Sequence record: MH550421
DNA: 64,000 bases
Direction: 5' to 3' (one strand)
Source: Enterobacteria phage T6
A model generated the notes under the pieces. The model was not told where the DNA came from and made no database searches. It saw only the letters and a program-made list of their open reading frames with translations. How positions within the stretch are numbered: the stretch's first letter is position 1; each line of letters opens with the position of its first letter. Below are positions 1-43,229 of the stretch, piece by piece. The position numbers were made by a program, and so were the translations under genes.

Positions 1-353
1 CTGTTCCTTCTCCGTTTGATCGTATTAACGTTCGTCGTCTGTTTAATATGTTGAAAACGAATATCGGACGTAGTTCAAAATATCGTTTGTTCGAATTAAA
101 TAACGCGTTTACTCGTTCATCATTCCGCACAGAAACTGCCCAGTACTTACAGGGAATTAAAGCTCTTGGTGGAATTTATGAATATCGTGTAGTTTGCGAT
201 ACAACAAATAACACTCCGTCAGTAATTGATAGAAATGAGTTTGTTGCAACATTCTACATCCAACCGGCTCGTAGTATAAATTATATCCAACTTAATTTCG
301 TCGCAACTGCTACTGGTGCAGATTTTGATGAGTTAACTGGTCTTGCAGGTTAA
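1..353 (+). CDS. 18: Tail sheath protein gp18, C-terminal fragment (5' end lies upstream of window)
   Basis: Frame open from window edge to TAA at 351-353; immediately upstream of gene 19 in conserved T4 order; followed by GC-rich hairpin. Confidence 0.7.
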   Translation, partial: VPSPFDRINVRRLFNMLKTNIGRSSKYRLFELNNAFTRSSFRTETAQYLQGIKALGGIYEYRVVCDTTNNTPSVIDRNEFVATFYIQPARSINYIQLNFVATATGADFDELTGLAG

Positions 354-359
354 TTGATT

Positions 360-998
360 ATGGGGCTTCGGCCCCTATTCTCGAGGAAACAAGTGATTAT
401 TTCTAAGTTTGTTACAATAAAACCAAGAAATCATTCAAAAATGTGGTCGACAATTCTGGGATATAAAGTATCATATCATGATACAGTATCTGTTCCAATA
501 GAATTAATGCCAAAGAATAGTAATAAAATAGTTGACGCTAAATGTGATTTGTGTGGTACTAAATTTAGTAGAAGCATTCAGCTTTTAAATAGAACACCCA
601 CACATGCATGTAGAAAATGTAGCATTAAACAAGTTGCTATCAAAAATTCGGAAGTTCAATCTGGAATAAGCAGACCATGGCAAAGAGGTGATAAACATCC
701 TCGATGGACTGGTAAAAGAAAAGAGTTTGCATTATATGCTAGTAGAGTTCATTCTATAACTAAGTCAGCTAAAATAAGAAAAATCTGGTCAAAATGGCCG
801 AATGCTGATAAAATAGGAGTGTGTGGCGTAGAAGGTGCTTACCAACTCGATCATAAAGTATCTATCAAATATGGATTTGATAATTTAATTCCGCCGGAAA
901 TTATAGCAAGCGTAAAAAATTTAGAAATAATCACTTGGGAATCTAACCGAGAAAAGTCAAAAAGAAATAGCGTAGATCTTTGGGATTTACTAGAATGA
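360..998 (+). CDS. Putative HNH-family endonuclease, free-standing (possible homing endonuclease) between genes 18 and 19
   Basis: Track ORF 354..998 starts at TTG; ATG at 360 or about 441 possible. Cys motif CDLCG...CRKC, then QLDHKVS...N...N...WESNREK resembling an HNH catalytic core; position between two conserved structural genes. Confidence 0.5.
   Translation: MGLRPLFSRKQVIISKFVTIKPRNHSKMWSTILGYKVSYHDTVSVPIELMPKNSNKIVDAKCDLCGTKFSRSIQLLNRTPTHACRKCSIKQVAIKNSEVQSGISRPWQRGDKHPRWTGKRKEFALYASRVHSITKSAKIRKIWSKWPNADKIGVCGVEGAYQLDHKVSIKYGFDNLIPPEIIASVKNLEIITWESNREKSKRNSVDLWDLLE
362..376 (+). terminator. Stem-loop GGGGC-UUCG-GCCCC downstream of gene 18
   Basis: Perfect 5-bp GC stem with UUCG tetraloop directly after stop codon; weak U tract. 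Confidence 0.45.
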
Positions 999-1024
999 TT
1001 CTAAAGGCCTGTTTCGGCAGGCCA

Positions 1025-1032
1025 TATAAATA
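1025..1032 (+). promoter_or_regulatory. Candidate T4 late promoter (TATAAATA)
   Basis: Exact TATAAATA in intergenic region upstream of gene 19. Confidence 0.45.
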
Positions 1033-1083
1033 CACTATATCCTTAATTCTTTAATTCTATATGCCCTAGGTTAAACATAGGGA

Positions 1084-1091
1084 TATAAATA
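1084..1091 (+). promoter_or_regulatory. Candidate T4 late promoter (TATAAATA) for gene 19
   Basis: Exact TATAAATA about 15 nt upstream of AGAGG Shine-Dalgarno and ATG at 1106. Confidence 0.6.
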
Positions 1092-1105
1092 CTACAGAGG
1101 CTAAT

Positions 1106-1597
1106 ATGTTTGTAGATGATGTAACACGAGCGTTTGAATCTGGTGATTTTGCTCGACCTAACTTATTCCAAGTAGAAATTTCTTATCTTGGACAAAATTT
1201 TACGTTTCAATGTAAAGCCACTGCTTTACCAGCTGGTATTGTAGAAAAAATTCCAGTCGGATTCATGAACCGTAAAATTAACGTAGCAGGCGATCGTACA
1301 TTCGATGACTGGACTGTTACAGTAATGAACGATGAGGCACATGATGCTCGCCAGAAGTTTGTTGATTGGCAAAGCATTGCTGCTGGGCAAGGGAACGAAA
1401 TTACTGGTGGAAAACCAGCAGAATATAAAAAGAGCGCTGTTGTTCGCCAATATGCTCGTGACGCTAAAACTGTAACAAAAGAAGTCGAAATTAAAGGCCT
1501 GTGGCCTACTAACGTGGGTGAACTTCAATTAGATTGGGATTCAAACAATGAAATCCAAACATTTGAAGTAACTCTTGCTCTCGATTATTGGGAATAA
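1106..1597 (+). CDS. 19: Tail tube protein gp19
   Basis: 163 aa; MFVDDVTRAFESGDFARPNLFQVEISYLGQNF... matches T4 gp19 in sequence and length. Confidence 0.95.
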   Translation: MFVDDVTRAFESGDFARPNLFQVEISYLGQNFTFQCKATALPAGIVEKIPVGFMNRKINVAGDRTFDDWTVTVMNDEAHDARQKFVDWQSIAAGQGNEITGGKPAEYKKSAVVRQYARDAKTVTKEVEIKGLWPTNVGELQLDWDSNNEIQTFEVTLALDYWE

Positions 1598-1602
1598 AAT
1601 GA

Positions 1603-1620
1603 ATGGGGAGAAATCCCCAT
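1603..1620 (+). terminator. Stem-loop (7-bp stem, GAAA loop) after gene 19
   Basis: AUGGGGA-GAAA-UCCCCAU inverted repeat directly after gene 19 stop. Confidence 0.4.
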
Positions 1621-1629
1621 CCTGCTTAA

Positions 1630-3254
<1,625 letters not shown>

Positions 3255-7810: not shown

Positions 7811-9094
7811 ATGGCTAAAATCAACGAACTTCTGCGCGAATCAACCACAACGAATAGCAACTCAATCGGTCGCCCAAATCTCGTTGCTTTGACTCGCGCT
7901 ACCACTAAATTAATATATTCTGACATTGTAGCAACGCAAAGAACTAATCAACCTGTTGCTGCTTTTTATGGTATCAAATACCTTAATCCAGATAACGAAT
8001 TTACATTTAAAACTGGTGCTACTTACGCTGGCGAAGCTGGATACGTAGACCGAGAACAAATCACAGAATTAACAGAAGAGTCTAAATTAACTCTCAATAA
8101 AGGCGATTTATTCAAATATAATAATATCGTTTATAAAGTATTAGAAAATACACCATTTGCTGATATTGAAGAAAGCGATTTAGAATTAGCTCTTCAAATT
8201 GCAATCGTTCTTTTAAAGGTTCGTCTATTTTCTGATGCTGCAGTAACAAGCAAATTTGAAAGCTCTGATAGTGAAATTGCGGATGCTAGATTCCAGATTA
8301 ATAAATGGCAAACCGCAGTTAAATCTCGTAAACTTAAAACTGGCATCACAGTTGAATTAGCACAAGATTTAGAAGCAAACGGATTCGATGCTCCTAATTT
8401 CTTGGAAGATTTGCTTGCAACTGAAATGGCGGATGAAATCAATAAAGATATTTTGCAGTCTTTGATTACAGTGTCAAAACGCTATAAAGTTACAGGAATT
8501 ACTGATACTGGATTCATTGATTTGAGTTATGCATCTGCACCTGAAGCTGGTCGTTCATTATACCGAATGGTATGCGAAATGGTTTCACATATCCAGAAAG
8601 AATCAACTTATACAGCAACGTTCTGTGTTGCTTCAGCTCGTGCCGCTGCGATTCTTGCTGCATCAGGTTGGTTAAAACATAAACCGGAAGATGATAAATA
8701 TCTTTCACAAAATGCCTACGGGTTCTTAGCTAATGGTTTACCGCTTTATTGCGATACCAACAGCCCATTAGATTATGTAATCGTTGGCGTAGTAGAAAAT
8801 ATCGGTGAAAAAGAAATTGTTGGATCAATTTTCTATGCTCCGTATACAGAAGGTCTTGACTTAGATGACCCTGAACATGTAGGTGCATTTAAAGTTGTAG
8901 TTGATCCAGAAAGTTTGCAGCCATCTATCGGTTTATTAGTTAGATATGCTTTATCTGCAAATCCTTACACTGTAGCAAAAGATGAAAAAGAAGCAAGAAT
9001 AATTGATGGTGGAGACATGGATAAAATGGCGGGTCGTTCAGATTTGTCTGTTTTATTAGGTGTTAAGCTACCAAAAATTATCATTGATGAATAA
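7811..9094 (+). CDS. 24: Capsid vertex protein gp24
   Basis: 427 aa, gp23 paralog; conserved position. Confidence 0.95.
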   Translation: MAKINELLRESTTTNSNSIGRPNLVALTRATTKLIYSDIVATQRTNQPVAAFYGIKYLNPDNEFTFKTGATYAGEAGYVDREQITELTEESKLTLNKGDLFKYNNIVYKVLENTPFADIEESDLELALQIAIVLLKVRLFSDAAVTSKFESSDSEIADARFQINKWQTAVKSRKLKTGITVELAQDLEANGFDAPNFLEDLLATEMADEINKDILQSLITVSKRYKVTGITDTGFIDLSYASAPEAGRSLYRMVCEMVSHIQKESTYTATFCVASARAAAILAASGWLKHKPEDDKYLSQNAYGFLANGLPLYCDTNSPLDYVIVGVVENIGEKEIVGSIFYAPYTEGLDLDDPEHVGAFKVVVDPESLQPSIGLLVRYALSANPYTVAKDEKEARIIDGGDMDKMAGRSDLSVLLGVKLPKIIIDE

Positions 9095-9100
9095 AACAAA

Positions 9101-9121
9101 GGGACCTTTCGGTCCCTTTTT
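9101..9121 (+). terminator. Intrinsic terminator after gene 24
   Basis: GGGACC-UUUC-GGUCCC hairpin followed by UUUUU. Confidence 0.75.
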
Positions 9122-9123
9122 AT

Positions 9124-10128
9124 TTAACTTACCAATTCAATCCAAGCCGGACGAAGTACATCTTGTACCATTTTAACTAATTCCTTCTTAATCAAAGACG
9201 GATTATCCGCTTGAGTTAGAGTAATACCTTCACGAGAAGTTTCTTCCAAAATATCTTGAACAGTTAGTCCCATCACCTTTCCAAAATCCTTTGGACCAAT
9301 TTCGCCAATTTTAGAAATAACGTTATTTACTCGGTTCAGTGTAACGTAACAAGCTAAAATTCCAACCAATTTGTTATCAGCTTCTGACAGTTCAACTTTA
9401 GCTTTAATAGGCTTATCAGACTTTTTCTTTTCACTAAATTTAGAGTTCTTGCATTTGATGGCTACACGATTGCGATTAGGCAGCCAAGAAGGATAACAAG
9501 GTTTCAATACATATCCTTCAGCGGTAAATACTTCGCCTTTTGCTTCAGCATTCCAAACGCATTTATTTGCATCAACTAATCCAGCATGGTCTACCGTAAA
9601 ATTATAATCCTGTACGACAGAATCTAAATCATTTGGCAATTTAATCAGCTCTTCAAATTTACCGCGACCTAAAAGTGGAGCCATTTTAAATTTAAACGTA
9701 TTACAGAATGATTCCATCATATAATCATCGACATAAGTTACATCACCACTTTCTGTAGTAACAATAATGTCAAATACATAAAAATCTTTATCACCATAAT
9801 CGACATTCTTCTGAATGCCAGGTCCAGCGAATTCGCCAAAGACTTGATAAGATACAACCGCTGAAGTTTCCATAATATCTTGTACTGCTTTAATGGAATC
9901 AGCGTAATTCTTCAAAATAATTTCATACCCAAAGAAATCTTCAGCAGGAAGAATAGGACCAGTGCGTTTAGCACAAGTTACTTTATCACGCTCAATAATC
10001 AATGAGAAATTTGTGCCATGAATCTTTTCACGAGCTACCCATTCGCCGCCAGTCAATCCTAAACTGTAAAGTTTTTCAATAAATTTAGAGTTGTAATGAT
10101 TTTCAAGACTGCTATACTTTTTAAACAT
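9124..10128 (-). CDS. rnlB: RNA ligase 2 (RnlB)
   Basis: 334 aa; KIHGTNFS nucleotidyltransferase lysine motif; [20 protein letters not shown]... as T4 Rnl2. Confidence 0.9.
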
Positions 10129-13198: not shown

Positions 13199-14706
13199 AT
13201 GGATATTAAAGTACATTTTCACGACTTCAGTCATGTACGCATCGATTGTGAAGAGAGCACGTTTCACGAATTAAGAGATTTCTTTTCGTTTGAGGCCGAT
13301 GGATATAGATTTAATCCTCGCTTCAGATGTGGCAACTGGGATGGACGAATCCGTCTTTTAGATTATAATCGACTTCTTCCATTCGGCTTAGTCGGGCAAA
13401 TTAAAAAGTTCTGTGATAACTTTGGCTATAAAGCCTGGATTGACCCACAAATTAACGAAAAAGAAGAATTATCAAGAAAAGATTTTGATGAATGGCTTTC
13501 TAAATTAGAAATCTATTCAGGAAATAAAAGAATTGAACCACACTGGTATCAAAAAGATGCAGTGTTCGAAGGATTAGTTAATCGTCGTAGAATTCTTAAT
13601 CTTCCAACATCTGCAGGTAAATCTTTAATTCAAGCTTTGCTTGCGCGGTATTATTTGGAAAATTATGAAGGTAAAATTCTTATCATTGTTCCAACAACTG
13701 CTCTGACAACTCAGATGGCTGATGACTTTGTTGACTATCGTTTATTCAGTCATGCAATGATAAAGAAAATCGGTGGCGGAGCATCAAAAGATGATAAATA
13801 TAAAAATGATGCACCAGTCGTTGTTGGTACATGGCAAACTGTAGTTAAACAACCGAAAGAATGGTTCTCACAGTTTGGAATGATGATGAATGATGAATGC
13901 CATCTTGCTACAGGAAAAAGTATTTCATCTATCATATCAGGATTAAATAATTGCATGTTTAAATTTGGTTTGTCTGGTTCATTACGTGATGGAAAAGCCA
14001 ATATCATGCAGTATGTTGGAATGTTTGGTGAAATATTTAAGCCAGTAACGACTTCTAAGTTAATGGAAGATGGACAAGTAACTGAGCTAAAAATTAATAG
14101 TATTTTTCTTCGCTATCCCGATGAGTTCACTACTAAATTAAAGGGAAAAACTTACCAAGAAGAAATAAAAATTATTACTGGGCTTAGTAAAAGAAATAAA
14201 TGGATCGCTAAATTAGCTATTAAGCTTGCGCAAAAAGATGAAAACGCTTTTGTCATGTTTAACATGTATCGCATGGTAAAGCTATTTTCGATTTAATTAA
14301 AAATGAATACGATAAAGTTTATTACGTATCAGGGGAAGTTGATACCGAAACCCGCAATATAATGAAAACCTTAGCTGAAAATGGTAAAGGAATAATTATA
14401 GTAGCTAGTTATGGTGTATTTTCTACTGGTATTTCAGTTAAAAATCTGCATCACGTTGTTTTAGCGCACGGTGTTAAATCAAAAATCATTGTATTACAAA
14501 CAATCGGTCGTGTATTACGTAAGCATGGTTCTAAAACAATCGCAACAGTCTGGGACCTCATAGATGACGCGGGCGTAGTTTCTAAATCAAAAACATCTTC
14601 TAAAAAATACTCGCATTTAAACTATCTTTTAAAACATGGAATTGATCGTATTCAGCGTTATGCTGATGAAAAGTTTAATTATGTGATGAAAGAGGTTAAA
14701 CTTTGA
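13199..14706 (+). pseudogene. uvsW: UvsW SF2 helicase, frame interrupted by 1-nt deletion
   Basis: Track ORFs 13199..14296 and 14362..14706 are in different frames; second frame is open from about 14263 and encodes the helicase C-terminal domain (VSGEVDTETR, QTIGRVLR); restoring one A in TTTAACATG near 14258-14263 gives a single ORF of about 502 aa. Confidence 0.8.
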
Positions 14707-15395
14707 ATTATAAATTAATATATGATAATTTAATTAATAGAGCCCAGAATCGGGCTCGCCTTAATGAATACACTGAAACACATCATATAATTCCTAGATG
14801 TATGGGTGGTACAAATGATAAGTGTAATTTAGTAGAACTAACGGCTGAAGAACATTTTATAGCCCATAAACTTTTAGCTAAAATTCATCCAAACCATTAC
14901 GGTATAATTAAAGCTGTTATATGTATGGGGATGAATTCAAATACTCATGAAAGACACGTCAATAAATCTTACGCATGGGAACGTCGTAAAATGGCAGAAC
15001 TTCAATCCGGCGAAGGTAATCCATTTTACGGAAAACACCATACGGAAGAACATAAACAATATATGTCAAAACTCATGAAAAGTCGTCCAATTACATGGGG
15101 AAATAAAATTAGTAAAACTAAAAGAATGAACCCAACGAAATGGACTGAAGAAGCTAAAAGATTACATTCAATCAATCAATCGGGTAAAAATAACGGCATG
15201 TATGGAAGGAAACATTCCGCTAAATCTATTCAGAAAATTAAAGATAACATGCCAGATAATTCAGGAGCTAATAACCCAGCTGCTAAACCTATAGAAGTAA
15301 ATGGTGTTAAGTATAAATGTATGAAAGATGCTTCTAAAGCTACTGGATTATCAATGTACAAACTAAGAATACTTAGAAAAACAGTTAATTTATAA
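14703..15395 (+). CDS. HNH homing endonuclease, Mob family (paralog of MobE)
   Basis: 230 aa; N-terminus MNYKLIYDNLINRAQ...ETHHIIPRCMGG...NLVELT..EHFIAH near-colinear with the mobE product at 42588..43229; TTG start overlapping uvsW stop. Confidence 0.75.
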   Translation: MNYKLIYDNLINRAQNRARLNEYTETHHIIPRCMGGTNDKCNLVELTAEEHFIAHKLLAKIHPNHYGIIKAVICMGMNSNTHERHVNKSYAWERRKMAELQSGEGNPFYGKHHTEEHKQYMSKLMKSRPITWGNKISKTKRMNPTKWTEEAKRLHSINQSGKNNGMYGRKHSAKSIQKIKDNMPDNSGANNPAAKPIEVNGVKYKCMKDASKATGLSMYKLRILRKTVNL

Positions 15396-15410
15396 GGGCT
15401 TCGGCCCTTT
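15395..15410 (+). terminator. Stem-loop AAGGGC-UUCG-GCCCUU upstream of uvsW.1 Shine-Dalgarno
   Basis: 6-bp stem with UUCG loop immediately followed by UGGAGAAAAAG-ATG. Confidence 0.45.
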
Positions 15411-15419
15411 GGAGAAAAA

Positions 15420-15651
15420 GATGTTACTAGAATTTAAACAATTTCTTTATGAAGCTTCTATTGATGAATTTATGGGTAAAATTGCCTCTTGTCAAACATT
15501 AGAAGGTTTAGAAGAACTTGAAGCTTATTATAAGAAAAGAGTCAAAGAAACTGAATTAAAAGATACTGATGACATCTCTGTGAGAGATGCTTTGGCAGGA
15601 AAAAGAGCTGAATTAGAAGATTCAGACGATGAAGTAGAAGAAAGCTTTTAA
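15420..15651 (+). CDS. uvsW.1: UvsW.1-like small acidic protein
   Basis: 76 aa from ATG at 15420 (MLLEFKQFLYEA...); GGAG Shine-Dalgarno; position after uvsW. Confidence 0.65.
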
Positions 15652-24240: not shown

Positions 24241-24301
24241 TTTGTGTTCCTCATGTTATGTCAGTAAGACTATTATAACACAACATAAGGAACTTGTAAA
24301 C
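24241..24301 (-). promoter_or_regulatory. Candidate early promoter (GTTTACA-N17-TATAAT) with leader for the alt.-3-like gene
   Basis: Minus strand GTTTACAAGTTCCTTATGTTGTGTTATAATAGTCTTACTGACATAACATGAGGAACACAAAATG; matches T4 early promoter consensus. Confidence 0.55.
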
Positions 24302-26358
24302 TACATTTTGAACTTTTTAGACATTCCGTTGATGTTAACCAAAGAAGCTAAGATTTGAGAAACTTCGTTTTCCTCTTCTTTTGATTCTTCTACAAGGAAT
24401 TGATTAAATCCAGTCATTGGACGAACTTCACCAGTTTCCATTAGATGGTCTCCATCATATACTGATTCTTCTAATTGTTCAGAAGGAGGAACGATTGTAC
24501 CTTCGATTAGATACTTGTTATAAGCAGTTTCTTTCATAAAGTACGTACTTACTTTATTAATCTTCAGTAAAATTCCACGCGGTAGAATAACTTCAGCTTC
24601 TGATGGAAATCCTGTTAAATGACCTGGAACGATAACTTTGATTCGCTCAGCTCCTTTAATTACCATACCCACGCTAGTTTCAGCATCTTCATTAGCATAT
24701 GTAGAATGACTACCCATATGCATCAAATCTTCTGCATCAACAGAACCTTCTCCTTCGCCAGAAAATACTTCACCGGAATCATCTAGAGCCATATAGTTTT
24801 TACCATGCTCACCGAAGATATTCGGTTTAAGCGATGTAGATACGAAGTTCTTGAAATAGAACATTTTGTTTTCAATGTTATGACGCAAAGTTTTAAAGGT
24901 AACTTCTTGTCCACGATAAAGCGTAGTTCCTGGAGGAAGAACTGAACCTTTAGCGAATGCAGAATCCAACGTCTCGATGTGCTTAATGGCACGTTCCATA
25001 TATTCTTCACGGGTAGAATCTGGTTTACCCAAAAGGAACGAGTTCATTTCAACATATGAATCTGCACAATAATCTTCAATTACATCAGATTCAGCTTGAG
25101 TTAATCCTTTTGGAGTTACTTCAGTACTTGCATATTCATACGCCTGAGCAGCAGATTCATTAATCAATTTATAAATGCCATTCATTACAAATTGAATAAT
25201 AGCTGTCTTTTCATCTGGCGTGGCTTTAGAACCTTTAACTAAATCATTAATAATTTTCTTAATAACATCAAAGCTATTAGAAATATTAATGTCAGCAAGA
25301 TCGCTTAAAATTTTATCAGTTTTATAATCAAAGAATTCTTTATTCTTTAAATATTCTTGAGAACCTTGATATGTTATATCGCTCTGCAGCTTGATAGATG
25401 GATCACGTAAACGCGCATGGGCCAATGCGATATGATTTCGGAAGTTTTCTAGTTCATAATCGCTAGATTTAAAACGAGAAGCACTCCTCATACCACCGAT
25501 AGCTCCTTTGCCGAAGTTTGAACCAATCTGGATAACGCCAGAGTTCATCGGACCTTCTGCTTTATATACCGGAACTTTAGATTCAAACTCTTGATATTTC
25601 TTGGCAGCGAAGCTATCACCCTGAAGTGAAGCATCAACAGTAGAATATTGAGCTTGTGCTGCTAATCGACGACTAATTTTAGTTTTCTGAATAACAGCTT
25701 GGTCCGTGCGCTTATCATTTTCTAAAGCAATAGAAGCAGCAACAGCGACAGCTTTAGGAACAGCATTACCTGTTTTAACGTCTACATAAACATCACCAAC
25801 CTTTGATTCAACTTTTGTGAATAACTCAGTTGAAATAGGAGGTACACCTGGAATGTCTTCTAAATTGGCATTTTTACGGTAAACCATAATATATGCGTAC
25901 TTTTTATCATAATCCCAGATTTCCTTTAAAAGAACATATCGACCTGCTCCTTTAATACGTACTAAACGGTCAGCAATAACTTGCATTTGACGAGCAGCGC
26001 CATTTGTTTTACTTTTTAGTACGCGGAATAAGCATGCGTCGATTTTATACTGTTTCATTGTTTGAAGAGCAGTATCAAAAACAGCATTAATGACGCCAAT
26101 TGGATTTCCACCCAAGTTTTTAAGCTTGACTAACGATAATTTCTCGTTGACACCTATCATTACGATATGCATCATTTTATCGCCTGGCTTAACGTTTTTA
26201 TTTGTATCACCGCCAGAGGTGTATGTACAAAATCTAAATCCAGGAAGCACACTTTCTTCGCCGGCTTGAATAGCAAAAATTTGTGGTATTTTATGCTTAG
26301 GATTTAAGTTAACAACCGGCGCCGAAGCGCCGTCAAATAATTCTGTAATAAGTTCCAT
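24301..26358 (-). CDS. Alt-family mono-ADP-ribosyltransferase paralog
   Basis: 685 aa; N-terminal about 230 aa colinear with the adjacent Alt (MELITELFD..., KIDAC..., RYVLLKE.WDYDKKYAYI); C-terminal R/S/E-x-E motifs (YRGQ, FVSTSL, SEAEVILPRG). Confidence 0.75.
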   Translation of the reverse strand: MELITELFDGASAPVVNLNPKHKIPQIFAIQAGEESVLPGFRFCTYTSGGDTNKNVKPGDKMMHIVMIGVNEKLSLVKLKNLGGNPIGVINAVFDTALQTMKQYKIDACLFRVLKSKTNGAARQMQVIADRLVRIKGAGRYVLLKEIWDYDKKYAYIMVYRKNANLEDIPGVPPISTELFTKVESKVGDVYVDVKTGNAVPKAVAVAASIALENDKRTDQAVIQKTKISRRLAAQAQYSTVDASLQGDSFAAKKYQEFESKVPVYKAEGPMNSGVIQIGSNFGKGAIGGMRSASRFKSSDYELENFRNHIALAHARLRDPSIKLQSDITYQGSQEYLKNKEFFDYKTDKILSDLADINISNSFDVIKKIINDLVKGSKATPDEKTAIIQFVMNGIYKLINESAAQAYEYASTEVTPKGLTQAESDVIEDYCADSYVEMNSFLLGKPDSTREEYMERAIKHIETLDSAFAKGSVLPPGTTLYRGQEVTFKTLRHNIENKMFYFKNFVSTSLKPNIFGEHGKNYMALDDSGEVFSGEGEGSVDAEDLMHMGSHSTYANEDAETSVGMVIKGAERIKVIVPGHLTGFPSEAEVILPRGILLKINKVSTYFMKETAYNKYLIEGTIVPPSEQLEESVYDGDHLMETGEVRPMTGFNQFLVEESKEEENEVSQILASLVNINGMSKKFKM

Positions 26359-26361
26359 GAT

Positions 26362-28455
26362 TTATCCTTGAACGAACTTGTAAGGCATGTTTGTAATATC
26401 TATGCAAGACGCAATAATTCCAAGAGATGATTCTACTTTCTGTTTAACATTTGATGAAACAAATGATGCAAAGTCAACTCTGTCTTCTATTTCAATATCA
26501 CCTGTCATTGCAACTACTTCACCGGTTTCCATTAAACAGTCTCCGTCATAGATTACCGATTCGGTGAGTTCTTCTGTGGTCATAACTTCAGCTTGAATGA
26601 GTTTTGTATTGTTAGATGTTGTTCCATCATTATTAGAAGCATCAGTTATTTTATTAACTTTGACCATTAATCCGCGCGGTAGAATAACTTCAGCTTCTGT
26701 TGCTATTCCGAGACTTCCTGGATATACAACATTAACTTTATGAGCTCCATCAATTGCCCATCCTATTTGAACTTTAACGTATTCAGGATTTTCTTTATAC
26801 GCTCTTATTTCGTTTGGATTAATAGTTATTCCTTCTTCATTTTTATCAACTGTTAATTCATTGCGAGCTTCTGGTTCTAAAAGACCAATACCAGCATGTG
26901 TAATTCCAAAACGTCCAAAAATGATAGGAGTTAAAGAAGTAGATACAAAATTTCTGAAATAGAATACTTTATTTTTAACTAGCGCTTCGTATATAGGAGC
27001 AGTCATACTTTGAGCACGATAAACTGTAATGCCTTCCGGTATGCGGTCACCATTTTCAAAAGCTGAATCTAAATTATTTATAGCAGATTCAATTTCTTTT
27101 TCACTCATTACATCATATCGTTCTGGATTGTAACGACCTAAAAGAAGATTATTAATGTCTGTATATCCTGAACCACAATACTCTCTAATACCGCGCTTTT
27201 GCGATGGAGTATATTTAGAACCATCACGGGCAATAGTAATATCAATCATTGGGCCTGCACCAATTCCAGAAAAACTATAAATCATTCGTTTGAGGAATTT
27301 AGTTTTTGCTGCATTCCAGGCATTTTTAGTTATTTCTCCCCAGACTTCATCTGGTTGCCCTTTACGAGTTTTATTATGTTTATCAAGCCAATTATCTTTA
27401 TATTCTTCAAAGAATTGATTGACAGCTGCTGCGTATTTCTCTAAACATTTTATTGAAGTAGTTGGTTCATTTTTGATCGCATTAAGAATTACATCTTTAA
27501 TTTTTTCGGAAACTTCATTAACCTCACTTTTTGAAAAGAATTTATAGTCATAGTGAAGTTCATTCGCAGTTCCTTCGGCAATAATTTTTGCTGCCTTAGT
27601 TTTAGAAGCTAATGAATTAATTCCAAGCTTCATTTCTTCTGCTTCGGGAATTAAAGGAGCAGTAGCAGGTTTATTGAAATTAGCTGCGGTAGATTCATAC
27701 TTCTGGAATAATTCACTTTCAAATCTAGAAGATTCCAATGACTGACTTTGTGCAATTGCTCTACGGGAAATTTTAACTTTAACGATTACAGCTTGGTCAG
27801 AACGTTTATCATTTTCTTGTGCAATAGATGCTGCAATTGCCTCATTTTTAGTTACTTGAGCTCCAGTATCTTTATTGATATAAACATCACCGACCTTCGA
27901 TTCAACCTTAGTAAAGAGCTCGGTACTAATTTCCGGAACTCCTGGAATGTCTTCTAGTGATACATTTTTGCGATGTATAAGAATATATGCATACTTTTTA
28001 TCATAATCCCAGAGTTCCTTAAGAAGGACGTATCTTCCACCTGAACGACTACGGATAAGTCTATCAGCAATAACTTGAATTTGTCGAGCTTGGCCAGCAG
28101 TTTTAGACTTAAGAATACGAAGCATGCAGGCATCAATTTTATACTGACGCATTGTTTGCATTGCAACAGTAAAAACTGAATTGATATAATTAATTGGGCT
28201 TGGTCCAAGACCTTTTAATTTAGCAATTGAACCTTTAGCAGTTAATGTAAAAGGAACAATATGCATCATTTTATCGCCCATTTTTAAATCGCGATTAGTA
28301 TCACCTCCGGATGTATAGGTACATAAACGAAAGCCTGGTTGTTCAATTGCATCATCAACATGAACTGAAAAAATTTGCGGTATTTTCTTCTTTGGATTTA
28401 AGTTTGTAATTGGAAGAGTAGTATCTTCGTCAAATAATTCTGTAATGAGTTCCAT
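26362..28455 (-). CDS. alt: Alt ADP-ribosyltransferase (packaged internal head protein)
   Basis: 697 aa from second Met; MELITELFDEDTTLPITNLNPKKKIPQIF...; ART motifs YRAQ, FVSTSL, TEAEVILPRG; directly downstream of gene 30. Confidence 0.85.
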   Translation of the reverse strand: MELITELFDEDTTLPITNLNPKKKIPQIFSVHVDDAIEQPGFRLCTYTSGGDTNRDLKMGDKMMHIVPFTLTAKGSIAKLKGLGPSPINYINSVFTVAMQTMRQYKIDACMLRILKSKTAGQARQIQVIADRLIRSRSGGRYVLLKELWDYDKKYAYILIHRKNVSLEDIPGVPEISTELFTKVESKVGDVYINKDTGAQVTKNEAIAASIAQENDKRSDQAVIVKVKISRRAIAQSQSLESSRFESELFQKYESTAANFNKPATAPLIPEAEEMKLGINSLASKTKAAKIIAEGTANELHYDYKFFSKSEVNEVSEKIKDVILNAIKNEPTTSIKCLEKYAAAVNQFFEEYKDNWLDKHNKTRKGQPDEVWGEITKNAWNAAKTKFLKRMIYSFSGIGAGPMIDITIARDGSKYTPSQKRGIREYCGSGYTDINNLLLGRYNPERYDVMSEKEIESAINNLDSAFENGDRIPEGITVYRAQSMTAPIYEALVKNKVFYFRNFVSTSLTPIIFGRFGITHAGIGLLEPEARNELTVDKNEEGITINPNEIRAYKENPEYVKVQIGWAIDGAHKVNVVYPGSLGIATEAEVILPRGLMVKVNKITDASNNDGTTSNNTKLIQAEVMTTEELTESVIYDGDCLMETGEVVAMTGDIEIEDRVDFASFVSSNVKQKVESSLGIIASCIDITNMPYKFVQG

Positions 28456-28478
28456 CATATCCTCTCTAGTGTTTATTC

Positions 28479-41424: not shown

Positions 41425-42591
41425 TTAAAAGTATTTTTTAAAACTCATCATAACTTTATCATCAACATCATTATCAATCTGTGCAACAAGGTAAGATGAC
41501 AATTCTACTTCTTGTGGCGCAGATTGAACATTATCAGAATTAAGATATTCACGAATCCAAGGATATGGATGTTTAACCGGAGCATCGGTAATTGGGCATG
41601 GAAGACCACACTGTTTCATACGAGATACAGTTAAGTAATCAATAAAGCTCCACATGCTATTTGTATTTAATCCAGGAACATCGCCATCTTTAAATAAATG
41701 AACTGCCCAATCTTTTTCTTGGCGGTTAACTTCCATGAAAATATCAACTGCTTCTTGTTCACACTCTTGAGCAATTTTAACCCATTCATCGCCATCAGTG
41801 CCAAGTTGAAGTTGACGAATAATATATTGAGTGCCTTTAAGGTGAAGCTGTTCATCACGTGCAATGAACTTCATAATCTTAGCATTACCTTCCATAATTT
41901 CCATGTTCTTATGGAAGTTAAAGGTACAAGCAAAAGATACATAAAAACGAATAGCTTCCAATGCGTTGATTACATGGAGGCAGAGATAAAGAGATTTCAT
42001 CAGATCTCGTTTAGCTCTTTGCTCAACGTCTTTATCGGCCAGAATTAGACCTTGGTCTTTATAATATTTAACCATGTCTTTGGCATTTTCCCAGGCACGG
42101 GTTTTAAGCAAGACATCATCATAATATTTACCAATGGATTCAGCACGTTTCATAATAGCTTCGTCCAACAGAATTTCATCAAATACTTTAGATGGGTCTG
42201 CGAACAGGTTACGCATAATATGAGTATAAGAACGTGAGTGAATTGTTTCACTAAAAGTCCATGTAGCAACCCATGTATCAAGACTTGGGTCTGAAATTAA
42301 TGACATAAGTACAGCAGATGGCGCACGACCCTGAATGCTATCCAAAAGTGATTGATACTTCAGGTTATTAGTAAAAATATTTTGCTGATACTGAGGAAGC
42401 TTATTAAACTGTGCAGCATCCATCATTAAGTTTACTTCTTCAGGACGCCAAAAAAATGATAAAGATTTCTCAATAAGTTCTTCAAATACTCTATGTCGTT
42501 GAATATCATATCGAGCTAAACCCAATCCAGAACCAAAAAACATCGGCTCAGTCAAAATATTAACAGGGGATGTATTAAAAACTGTACTCAT
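41425..42591 (-). CDS. nrdB: Ribonucleotide reductase small subunit NrdB (no intron)
   Basis: 388 aa continuous ORF; MSTVFNTSPVNILTEPMFFGSGLGLARYDIQRHRVFEELIEK... Confidence 0.95.
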   Translation of the reverse strand: MSTVFNTSPVNILTEPMFFGSGLGLARYDIQRHRVFEELIEKSLSFFWRPEEVNLMMDAAQFNKLPQYQQNIFTNNLKYQSLLDSIQGRAPSAVLMSLISDPSLDTWVATWTFSETIHSRSYTHIMRNLFADPSKVFDEILLDEAIMKRAESIGKYYDDVLLKTRAWENAKDMVKYYKDQGLILADKDVEQRAKRDLMKSLYLCLHVINALEAIRFYVSFACTFNFHKNMEIMEGNAKIMKFIARDEQLHLKGTQYIIRQLQLGTDGDEWVKIAQECEQEAVDIFMEVNRQEKDWAVHLFKDGDVPGLNTNSMWSFIDYLTVSRMKQCGLPCPITDAPVKHPYPWIREYLNSDNVQSAPQEVELSSYLVAQIDNDVDDKVMMSFKKYF

Positions 42592-43229
42592 TTAGAATCC
42601 TTAAATTTACATTTATCATAATGCCATCTTAAAGCATTGCCTTTATTAACTTTCTTGCCACAATGCGGACAAGGCGGATACTCTGTACCTTGCTTAGTTC
42701 TCAAAGAAATCAAATCACGGGTTTCTTTAGTATGAGGAACATCTCTTGTCGGAGAGATTGTACCATACATCGGATTAAGCACGCCGACTTTAGCAGCAGC
42801 TATATTCTTTTTAGCTTCTTCGGTTTTAGGTTTTCTCATGCGAGCTAAATGCTCTTTGGTAAATTTCCTTCCTTTAAGGGCTCTACTTATCTTTTCTCTG
42901 GTTTCCATAGAAACTTCACGTCCTGTAGCAGCTTCAGATAAACGTCGTCTACCTAATTCGTACAGTTGAGAAGAAATTTTATATGAGCGATTTTTACCAG
43001 TCAAGCACATTAAACCAAAAGCTTTCTTTAATCCTGGAGTGTCATATATTTTACATAAAAGCCAATGAGCTATAAAATGCTCTCTACCTGTTAATTCAAC
43101 TAAATTTTCTTTATCATCAGAACCTCCCATACATCTAGGGATTATATGATGAGTCTCTTTATATTCGGATAAAGGTTCCCGAGCCTGAGCTCGGGAAATT
43201 AGGTCATTATAGATTTTTTGATAATTCAT
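42588..43229 (-). CDS. mobE: HNH homing endonuclease MobE
   Basis: 213 aa; ETHHIIPRCMGG...NLVELT..EHFIAH; located between nrdA and nrdB with overlapping start/stop codons. Confidence 0.8.
   Translation of the reverse strand: MNYQKIYNDLISRAQAREPLSEYKETHHIIPRCMGGSDDKENLVELTGREHFIAHWLLCKIYDTPGLKKAFGLMCLTGKNRSYKISSQLYELGRRRLSEAATGREVSMETREKISRALKGRKFTKEHLARMRKPKTEEAKKNIAAAKVGVLNPMYGTISPTRDVPHTKETRDLISLRTKQGTEYPPCPHCGKKVNKGNALRWHYDKCKFKDSK

Follow-up and report, generated by a model that had tools for sequence, protein, structure and literature searches.

What is the open reading frame (ORF) of ~200 amino acids that lies between the genes for the tail sheath (gene 18) and tail tube (gene 19) in a 64,000-nucleotide stretch of Enterobacteria phage T6 DNA (sequence record MH550421; the whole stretch is termed the window here), and how did it come to occupy this site? 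The original prediction, drawn from the sequence alone, proposed a free-standing HNH-type endonuclease-like gene that had invaded the 18-19 junction. This proposal is supported by the presence or absence of the gene among relatives, by incongruent alleles, by the modular build of the protein and by an invariant D-H...N...N signature. Comparative sequence and predicted structure indicate that ORF19.1, whose product is gp19.1, is probably a free-standing homing endonuclease gene, the HNH-like family of which is uncharacterised.

A cassette at the gene 18-gene 19 junction

The window starts inside gene 18. Its alignment with T4 is collinear as far as the gene 18 stop codon and resumes at position 999, from where the flank is identical to T4. 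The cassette in between begins at the base after the stop codon and replaces nine nucleotides (nt) of T4, TACGGTGCA. It comprises a 39-nt leader with a hairpin and a ribosome-binding site followed by a 606-nt ORF whose TGA stop abuts the shared sequence. The corresponding gap in T4 is 116 nt (120 nt if the stop codon is counted); the native gene 18 hairpin and both late promoters of gene 19 are unaltered and are now positioned 3′ of the cassette. The features of the junction are as follows.

351-353, plus strand: TAA stop codon of gene 18 (tail sheath), in which the window starts (T4 and RB6 alignment, PST annotation)
354-998, plus strand: inserted cassette, 645 base pairs (bp) (three-way alignment of window, T4 and RB6)
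362-375, plus strand: leader hairpin GGGGC-UUCG-GCCCC, cassette-borne, not in T4
383-386, plus strand: Shine-Dalgarno sequence GAGG, 6-nt spacer to GTG 393 (read from the sequence)
393-998, plus strand: ORF19.1 coding sequence, 201 amino acids, GTG start, TGA stop at 996-998
1006-1023, plus strand: native gene 18 hairpin GGCCUGU-UUCG-GCAGGCC, identical in T4, RB6 and the window; fold z-score -2.4
1025-1032, plus strand: late promoter motif TATAAATA of gene 19, exact, also in T4
1084-1091, plus strand: second late promoter motif TATAAATA of gene 19, exact, also in T4
1106-1597, plus strand: gene 19 (tail tube), the downstream neighbor

The geometry described originally, in which the ORF is bracketed by the gene 18 hairpin and two late promoters, was right, but the hairpin at 362-375 belongs to the insert and that of gene 18 itself is at 1006-1023. 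Both hairpins that flank the cassette possess a UUCG tetraloop closed by a C-G pair, and their stems are unrelated in sequence. A scan of window positions 1-1700 against Rfam produced no match.

The sole ORF between genes 18 and 19 spans 354-998 on the plus strand and could start at TTG 354 (214 amino acids), ATG 360 (212 amino acids) or GTG 393 (201 amino acids). GTG 393 is the best start because GAGG is located at 6-nt spacing upstream, because nearly all homologues have the N-terminus M-I-I-S-K at this point, and because the T6 GenBank entry also gives the GTG start. The ribosome-binding site is therefore not poor, and the weak TTG or ATG start suggested previously is replaced. The ATG 360 and TTG 354 candidates were rejected as they lie in or before the leader hairpin, have no ribosome-binding site and overrun the conserved M-I-I-S-K terminus.

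ORF19.1 is a real gene and not a chance ORF since it matches PHROG 5104 ('unknown function') with an expectation value (E) of 4e-82, has translated homologues in 242 phage records, and yields a profile of 41 homologues that retrieves 6,917 cluster representatives at E ≤1e-3 among 1.84 billion proteins. The ORF is already known as T6 ORF19.1, a named reading frame without a function: the T6 entry is the same gene, with DNA 100% identical over 380-1000 and protein 99.5% identical. Database labels for the gene are mostly hypothetical, with a few automated HNH or homing endonuclease designations and some that are plainly wrong ('holin', 'putative head morphogenesis protein').

Comparison of the 18-19 region across T-even genomes revealed that the gene is not a feature of all relatives. 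The site in Tequatrovirus has three states: a T6-type cassette in 69 of the 676 records that match window positions 1-1700, an RB3/RB6-type cassette in 48 of 668, and an empty site as in T4, with a 116-nt intergenic gap, in the others. In terms of Tequatrovirus records, the T6-type allele amounts to ~13% and the RB3/RB6-type to ~9%. The two alleles diverge in their central parts but share a leader and first codons and are 88% identical over the last ~230 nt. At the protein level the N-terminal domains (N-domains) are 36% identical and the C-terminal domains (C-domains) 74%. The similarity of the last ~230 nt indicates recombination inside the gene.

The same junction is occupied sporadically in at least six other phage groups. 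A homologue is present in VR26 and missing from VR25 and a sibling phage, is present in Raoultella phage M12a and missing from the Jiaodavirus phages JD18 and Mineola, and, in a Hadassahvirus-type comparison, is present in Acinetobacter phage Mokit and missing from Maestro and Minot. Homologues between the sheath and tube genes also occur in Aeromonas phage AS-zj, Shewanella phage Thanatos-2 and, outside the Straboviridae, Sinorhizobium phage phiM7. Presence and absence at an identical site in close relatives, with boundaries that are exact to the base, is the pattern expected of homing endonuclease genes. The gene phylogeny also is incongruent with that of the phages, as is evident from the matrix of pairwise identities and from the mosaic alleles, and this too is characteristic of such genes. 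The N-domain of the RB6 protein shares 61% identity with its Raoultella M12a counterpart, 58% with the Thanatos-2 domain and only 36% with the domain from Yersinia phage PST, yet the sheath C-termini of PST and RB6 are 99% identical. Taken together, sporadic occurrence, base-exact boundaries, competing alleles and incongruence argue for a homing endonuclease gene and not for a vertically inherited accessory gene.

Domains of gp19.1 and comparison with known nucleases

The Cys4 element and the C-terminal core AYQLDHKVSIKYGFDNLIPPEIIASVKNLEIITWESNREK that had been noted in the ORF of ~200 amino acids are both evident in the ORF19.1 translation. The domains are encoded as follows.

393-677, plus strand: N-domain, residues 1-95, Cys4 zinc ribbon or treble-clef-like; presumed DNA-binding and specificity module
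543-545, 552-554, 609-611 and 618-620, plus strand: codons of the four conserved cysteines (Cys4)
678-995, plus strand: predicted HNH-like (beta-beta-alpha-metal) nuclease C-domain
849-854, 918-920 and 945-947, plus strand: codons of D153-H154, N176 and N185, respectively

The Cys4 element, CDLC...CRKC, corresponds to C51, C54, C73 and C76 when numbered from GTG 393 and is conserved in homologues. The N-domain shows weak matches to DUF4379 (a 'treble clef' zinc finger) in gp19.1, in 16 of 41 and in nine of 144 relatives, as well as weak matches to kinetoplastid mS66 zinc-finger proteins. An AlphaFold2 model built from a 41-sequence alignment is confident, with two domains and a mean predicted local distance difference test score of 89.5. 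The C-domain of the model consists of a strand (150-154), two short helices, a second strand (177-181) and a helix (182-187), thereby placing a strand-strand-helix unit around D153, H154, N176 and N185. These are the only residues that are invariant in 39 diverse C-domains; they are invariant also in 41 close homologues, and in 144 relatives their conservation is 90% or higher. An active site borne on a pair of antiparallel strands and the helix after them typifies the HNH (His-Me finger) superfamily, in which the catalytic His that ends strand 1 often has Asp or His before it, a structural Asn precedes strand 2 and the metal ligand on the helix is Asn or His. The layout in the model, with Asp-His at the end of the first strand, Asn before the second and Asn on the helix, is that of an HNH active site. 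The Asp-His/Asn type of beta-beta-alpha-metal active site, as in I-HmuI and T4 endonuclease VII, has the same arrangement.

The 31 top structural neighbors include Cas9 HNH domains, an Rhs endonuclease toxin, SspE, T5 SciA, VcaM4I and McrA, in addition to BrxU, endonuclease I, PtuB, a TIGR02646 protein and DraIII. Among predicted viral structures in BFVD, the significant matches beyond the family itself are proteins named HNH endonuclease (E 1e-5), endonuclease-like and homing endonuclease. Proteins that consist solely of the C-domain also exist, including BFVD M1HDJ8 of Salmonella phage S16 (106 amino acids, 61% identity), P0118, P0160 and others; these are either truncated remnants or stand-alone nuclease modules.

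Domain arrangements were read among the 150 best representatives of the family, and Pfam domains were scored in 144 relatives. The C-domain occurs alone (~110 amino acids) or joined to NUMOD3, helix-turn-helix arrays, CapR, DUF7487 repeats or DUF4379, and two types of N-domain are found at the sheath-tube locus itself. Phage homing endonucleases are usually built by linking one nuclease module to DNA-binding modules that can be exchanged (PMC2988022, PMC10448857). The gp19.1 family displays the same union of a nuclease module with interchangeable partners, DNA binding by the N-domain being presumed.

Comparison with characterised systems brings out both similarities and differences. The Mob proteins of T4 (MobA-E) resemble it in being encoded by free-standing, sporadic genes in intergenic positions beside conserved essential genes with which they are co-oriented, and in being small two-module proteins with HNH-type and zinc or DNA-binding parts (PMC2988022). 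However, Mob proteins have the HNH domain N-terminally and NUMOD3 or a zinc finger C-terminally, whereas the zinc ribbon of gp19.1 is N-terminal, its nuclease domain is C-terminal and NUMOD3 is lacking. The Mob signature also is H-H...N...H in contrast to D-H...N...N in gp19.1, and hhalign detected no profile similarity between gp19.1 and either the two Mob genes of the window (HNH plus NUMOD3) or a 39-sequence Mob alignment. Membership of the Mob family was rejected on the basis of domain order, the lack of NUMOD3 and the lack of profile similarity.

I-HmuI is a nicking enzyme with Asp-His on the first strand and an Asn metal ligand on the helix. The D-H...N...N signature of gp19.1 fits this layout as generally described for the I-HmuI structure, but I-HmuI and I-TevIII are intron-encoded with N-terminal nuclease domains. 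The Gme (4h9d) and GVE2 (5h0o) HNH proteins show only 10-17% identity to gp19.1 with high root-mean-square deviation. These are terminase-associated enzymes with zinc-binding cysteines within the HNH domain, whereas in gp19.1 the N-terminal domain, distinct from that of the nuclease, holds the Cys4 element, and most relatives dispense with the gene. A terminase-associated HNH protein of the HK97 gp74 type was rejected, as the gene follows that for the sheath instead of lying by genes 16 and 17, and is absent from T4 and from most relatives that package normally. The Seg (GIY-YIG) family was dismissed as neither Pfam nor PHROGs gave a GIY-YIG match.

Hef and Hef-like genes, such as Hef of phage U5 and F-LimVIII of Dickeya phage LIMEstone1 (Ackermannviridae), likewise are free-standing homing-type genes of T4-related phages. 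F-LimVIII occupies the same sheath-tube junction (8129-9919 of the compared LIMEstone1 sequence) and possesses DUF7487 repeats that also appear in some gp19.1 relatives. However, it is a 596-residue protein encoded on the opposite strand and has a nuclease domain of the Vsr/DUF559/REase_MTES_1575-like type. A relationship with Hef was dropped since F-LimVII and F-LimVIII are Vsr-like and show no hhalign similarity to the gp19.1 C-domain. As the F-LimVIII nuclease is unrelated to gp19.1, the sheath-tube junction has been colonised by at least two nuclease families. On these comparisons gp19.1 falls outside the Mob, Seg and Hef families, would act in the same manner as their members, and is probably a new, uncharacterised member of the free-standing homing endonucleases that is marked by reversed domain order and unusual fidelity to one junction.

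A recoded patch near the 3′ end of gene 18

Over the final 353 nt of gene 18 the window differs from T4 at 22 positions, 14 of which are clustered within 33 nt and are almost all synonymous, with near-identity on either side.

270-302, plus strand: patch of mostly synonymous differences at the 3′ end of gene 18; candidate cleavage or immunity site

The patch covers ~11 codons (R-S-I-N-Y-I-x-L-N-F-V), ends 51 bp before the insertion point and specifies Ile-Asn as ATA AAT at 277-282. According to codon tables, ATA AAT encodes Ile-Asn of the conserved P-A-R-S-I-N-Y/F-I peptide in every examined carrier of typical architecture. These carriers represent seven lineages: T6-type and RB3-type Tequatrovirus, VR26, Raoultella M12a, Mokit and L045, the QL01-like L036, and Thanatos-2. 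Phages of the same genera with empty sites mostly have ATT or ATC followed by AAC. The T4-type patch was found in none of the 69 T6-type carriers, and a chimeric query that joined the T4-type patch to the T6-type leader retrieved as its best record PST itself, at 94.8% identity.

As a search of IMG/VR with gp19 recovered only 15 loci, an independent sample was fetched with degenerate DNA patterns for the gene 18 peptide. A 19.1 homologue is located just downstream in three of the 11 contigs with ATA AAT compared to none of the 103 with other codons (Fisher p ~7e-4, computed by hand from contigs that are not independent). Two Acinetobacter-type contigs in this database, L045 and L046, have an identical recoded patch, with and without the 19.1 gene, respectively; phage e11/2 also has the patch without the gene.

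The recoding creates TATAAATT at 275-282, which is a seven of eight match to the late promoter motif TATAAATA and is 111 nt upstream of GTG 393. Based on its codon differences and their association with the gene in these genomes, the patch is a candidate cleavage or immunity site for gp19.1, an assignment that is held with slightly less than even confidence.

Mechanism, alternatives and implications

If ORF19.1 is a homing endonuclease gene, gp19.1 would act during mixed infection by binding the 3′ end of gene 18 in a genome that lacks the cassette through the zinc-ribbon domain. The HNH-like domain would then nick or cut the DNA, probably at or near the Ser-Ile-Asn-Tyr codons ~70-80 bp upstream of the site of the cassette. 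Repair by T4-type recombination would then copy the carrier genome, so that the cassette and flanking gene 18 and 19 markers would be inherited preferentially. The carrier would be protected by the synonymous recoding (ATY AAC to ATA AAT plus neighboring changes). Expression would most likely be by read-through of gene 18 late transcripts, possibly aided by TATAAATT in the recoded patch. Free-standing T4 endonucleases as a rule cleave tens to hundreds of bp from the insertion site and are avoided by polymorphisms in the carrier (PMC2988022), which makes the proposed mechanism conventional.

Several results weigh against this interpretation. The profile search for HNH domains (PF01844) that the original prediction had advised gave no Pfam HNH match to gp19.1 even at E ≤10 and no usable one in 41 relatives, and in 144 relatives only two matched HNH_4 and two HNH, weakly. 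Neither NCBIfam nor PADLOC nuclease models matched gp19.1. Hidden Markov models built for the family as a whole and for just the C-domain, when compared with all PDB sequences, returned no HNH protein but only zinc-finger, leucine-rich repeat and gp41 noise, and Foldseek produced nothing below E 0.59 in the PDB. The hhalign comparison with the 39-sequence Mob-type HNH alignment was not significant (E 0.72), the best local alignment pairing QLDHKVSIKYGF with ETHHIIPRCMGG, which is the expected register. Thus, no curated HNH sequence model and no solved HNH protein was matched significantly by gp19.1. Because the sequence-based evidence is negative, membership of the HNH fold is quite probable instead of established. 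Neither an exact late promoter motif nor a convincing sigma-70-type site was found for ORF19.1, middle (MotA) promoters not having been scanned; read-through from gene 18 is the simplest account of its expression. The scan for sigma-70 promoters and terminators likewise lent no support to a promoter of its own or to a PeSL (promoter-early stem-loop) cassette. The divergent carriers AS-zj and phiM7 lack ATA AAT, and the recoded patch is found also in empty-site phages e11/2, L009, L015 and L046. These latter sites fit former carriers or resistant alleles left by loss of the endonuclease gene, and fit plain linkage equally; the association between patch and gene as a whole could be plain linkage. 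Repeated loss of a gene that had long been resident could also account for homologues at this site in very distant phages. In addition, the T-even 19.1 gene is nowhere treated as an endonuclease in the literature searched. A full-text search with 'gp19.1' and a search with 'ORF19.1' recovered only an unrelated SPP1 gene and unrelated Candida genes, respectively, a review of T4 mobile elements that was searched for genes 18 and 19 and phage T6 does not mention them, and a 2026 study of T6 refers to the tail sheath gene only in a different context.

An old gene of the sheath-tube module that encodes an accessory nuclease, domesticated or never mobile, might aid the phage, perhaps through breakdown of the DNA of the host or of competitors or through exclusion of phages that co-infect, and might be inherited vertically and often lost. 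The identical position from Tequatrovirus to Sinorhizobium phiM7 and the Aeromonas and Shewanella phages is compatible with residence of this type, as is the strict conservation of the putative catalytic residues, which implies selection for activity; an ICP1 study notes that domestication of homing-endonuclease-like nucleases is possible. However, T4 and about three quarters of Tequatrovirus records lack the gene, and two alleles with N-domains that are only 36% identical coexist in one genus, each with closer relatives in other genera. As the cassette boundaries also are base-exact and the empty sites with a recoded patch resemble former carriers, vertical residence is regarded as distinctly unlikely. 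The two G+C-rich UUCG-loop hairpins that bracket the cassette (362-375 and 1006-1023) bring to mind a different route in which the ORF moves by recombination between short flanking hairpin cassettes, as documented for PeSL elements in T4-type phages (PMC2839356), with the activity of the protein irrelevant to its distribution. A PeSL cassette by definition has an early sigma-70 promoter together with a stem-loop on each side of the ORF, whereas no promoter-like site on the plus strand adjoins either hairpin here. The hairpins share little sequence, and the empty T4 site is not a simple hairpin-hairpin recombinant. Shuffling of this type, which leaves both the gene 18 patch and the nuclease plus DNA-binding build unexplained, is highly improbable. 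The lack of Pfam, NCBIfam and PADLOC nuclease matches, with zinc-finger modules providing the only weak sequence similarities, would suit a nucleic-acid-binding zinc-finger protein, either a regulator or an RNA-binding factor, in which the HNH-like fold is non-catalytic. However, the four putative active-site residues are the most conserved positions in the family and the structural neighbors are nucleases, leaving this possibility with almost negligible probability.

The gene 18 patch has alternatives of its own: it may create the late-promoter-like TATAAATT that drives the cassette, or may be merely a linked haplotype, in neither case conferring immunity. No other late promoter was found in the cassette, and AGT ATA AAT T is common to the Tequatrovirus and Raoultella M12a carriers. 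However, the VR26, Mokit, L036, L045 and Thanatos-2 carriers read GATAAATT, a six of eight match without the first T. The TATAAATT motif is not enriched in the window (13 sites; TATAAATW overall 31 compared to 21.6 expected), and the patch extends over ~11 codons, far past the motif. An explanation of the patch that dispenses with immunity is deemed unlikely.

Elsewhere, window positions 1-1700 are 100% identical to PST and 99.9% to T6, and identity to PST is 99.1% over the first 11.5 kb and 95-97.5% with several indels thereafter, so that the window represents a T6/PST-like Tequatrovirus closely related to, but distinct from, PST. By homology to the PST annotation the window includes many homing endonuclease genes (segD, segE, I-TevI and segG). 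A gene for a 213-residue MobE-type protein (HNH plus NUMOD3) that is absent from PST is located between nrdB and nrdA (42588-43229, minus strand). The adjoining 5′ part of nrdB (42113-42591) is 87% identical to PST compared to 95-98% elsewhere, which looks like a co-conversion or target-divergence footprint of the MobE-type endonuclease. The uvsW gene is present as two ORFs (13199-14296 and 14362-14706) where PST annotates one continuous frame of 1509 nt; the interruption may be a genuine frameshift or may stem from an error in sequencing. It is followed by a gene for a 230-residue Mob-type protein with HNH and NUMOD3 (14703-15395) and then by a uvsW.1-like ORF (15409-15651). Two tandem Alt-like ADP-ribosyltransferase paralogues of 685 and 698 amino acids are encoded at 24301-28458 (minus strand), where the alignment with PST breaks and the window has ~1.8 kb extra. 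In the compared sequence of Thanatos-2, two overlapping genes are called in the region of the large terminase (1-1980); the first also matches a Tn7 TnsA-like N-terminal endonuclease domain, which may be another nuclease insertion beside a packaging gene.

A broader scenario is advanced tentatively and is considered rather doubtful: a single endonuclease lineage would have tracked the sheath gene across at least seven T4-like groups with its conserved C-terminal nuclease holding to a fixed cleavage preference for the codons of the invariant S-I-N-Y/F sheath peptide, carriers in every lineage escaping self-cleavage through the same ATY AAC to ATA AAT recoding, and gp19.1 would represent a new subfamily of HNH proteins, reversed in domain order and invisible to current domain libraries. 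If true, co-evolution between endonuclease and target would have been recorded naturally, and in replicate, at the 3′ end of gene 18. Free-standing HNH homing endonucleases beside conserved phage genes are well established and no concept is altered by the present case. If confirmed, the assignment would add an uncharacterised family (PHROG 5104, without a Pfam nuclease domain and with thousands of metagenomic relatives) to the free-standing homing endonucleases of T-even phages, and would account for the long-known insertion polymorphism between T6 and T4. It would also permit better annotation of a gene that is now labeled hypothetical, 'holin' or 'head morphogenesis', and would flag a locus at which recombination between therapeutic T4-like phages should be skewed as a result of marker exclusion and gene conversion.

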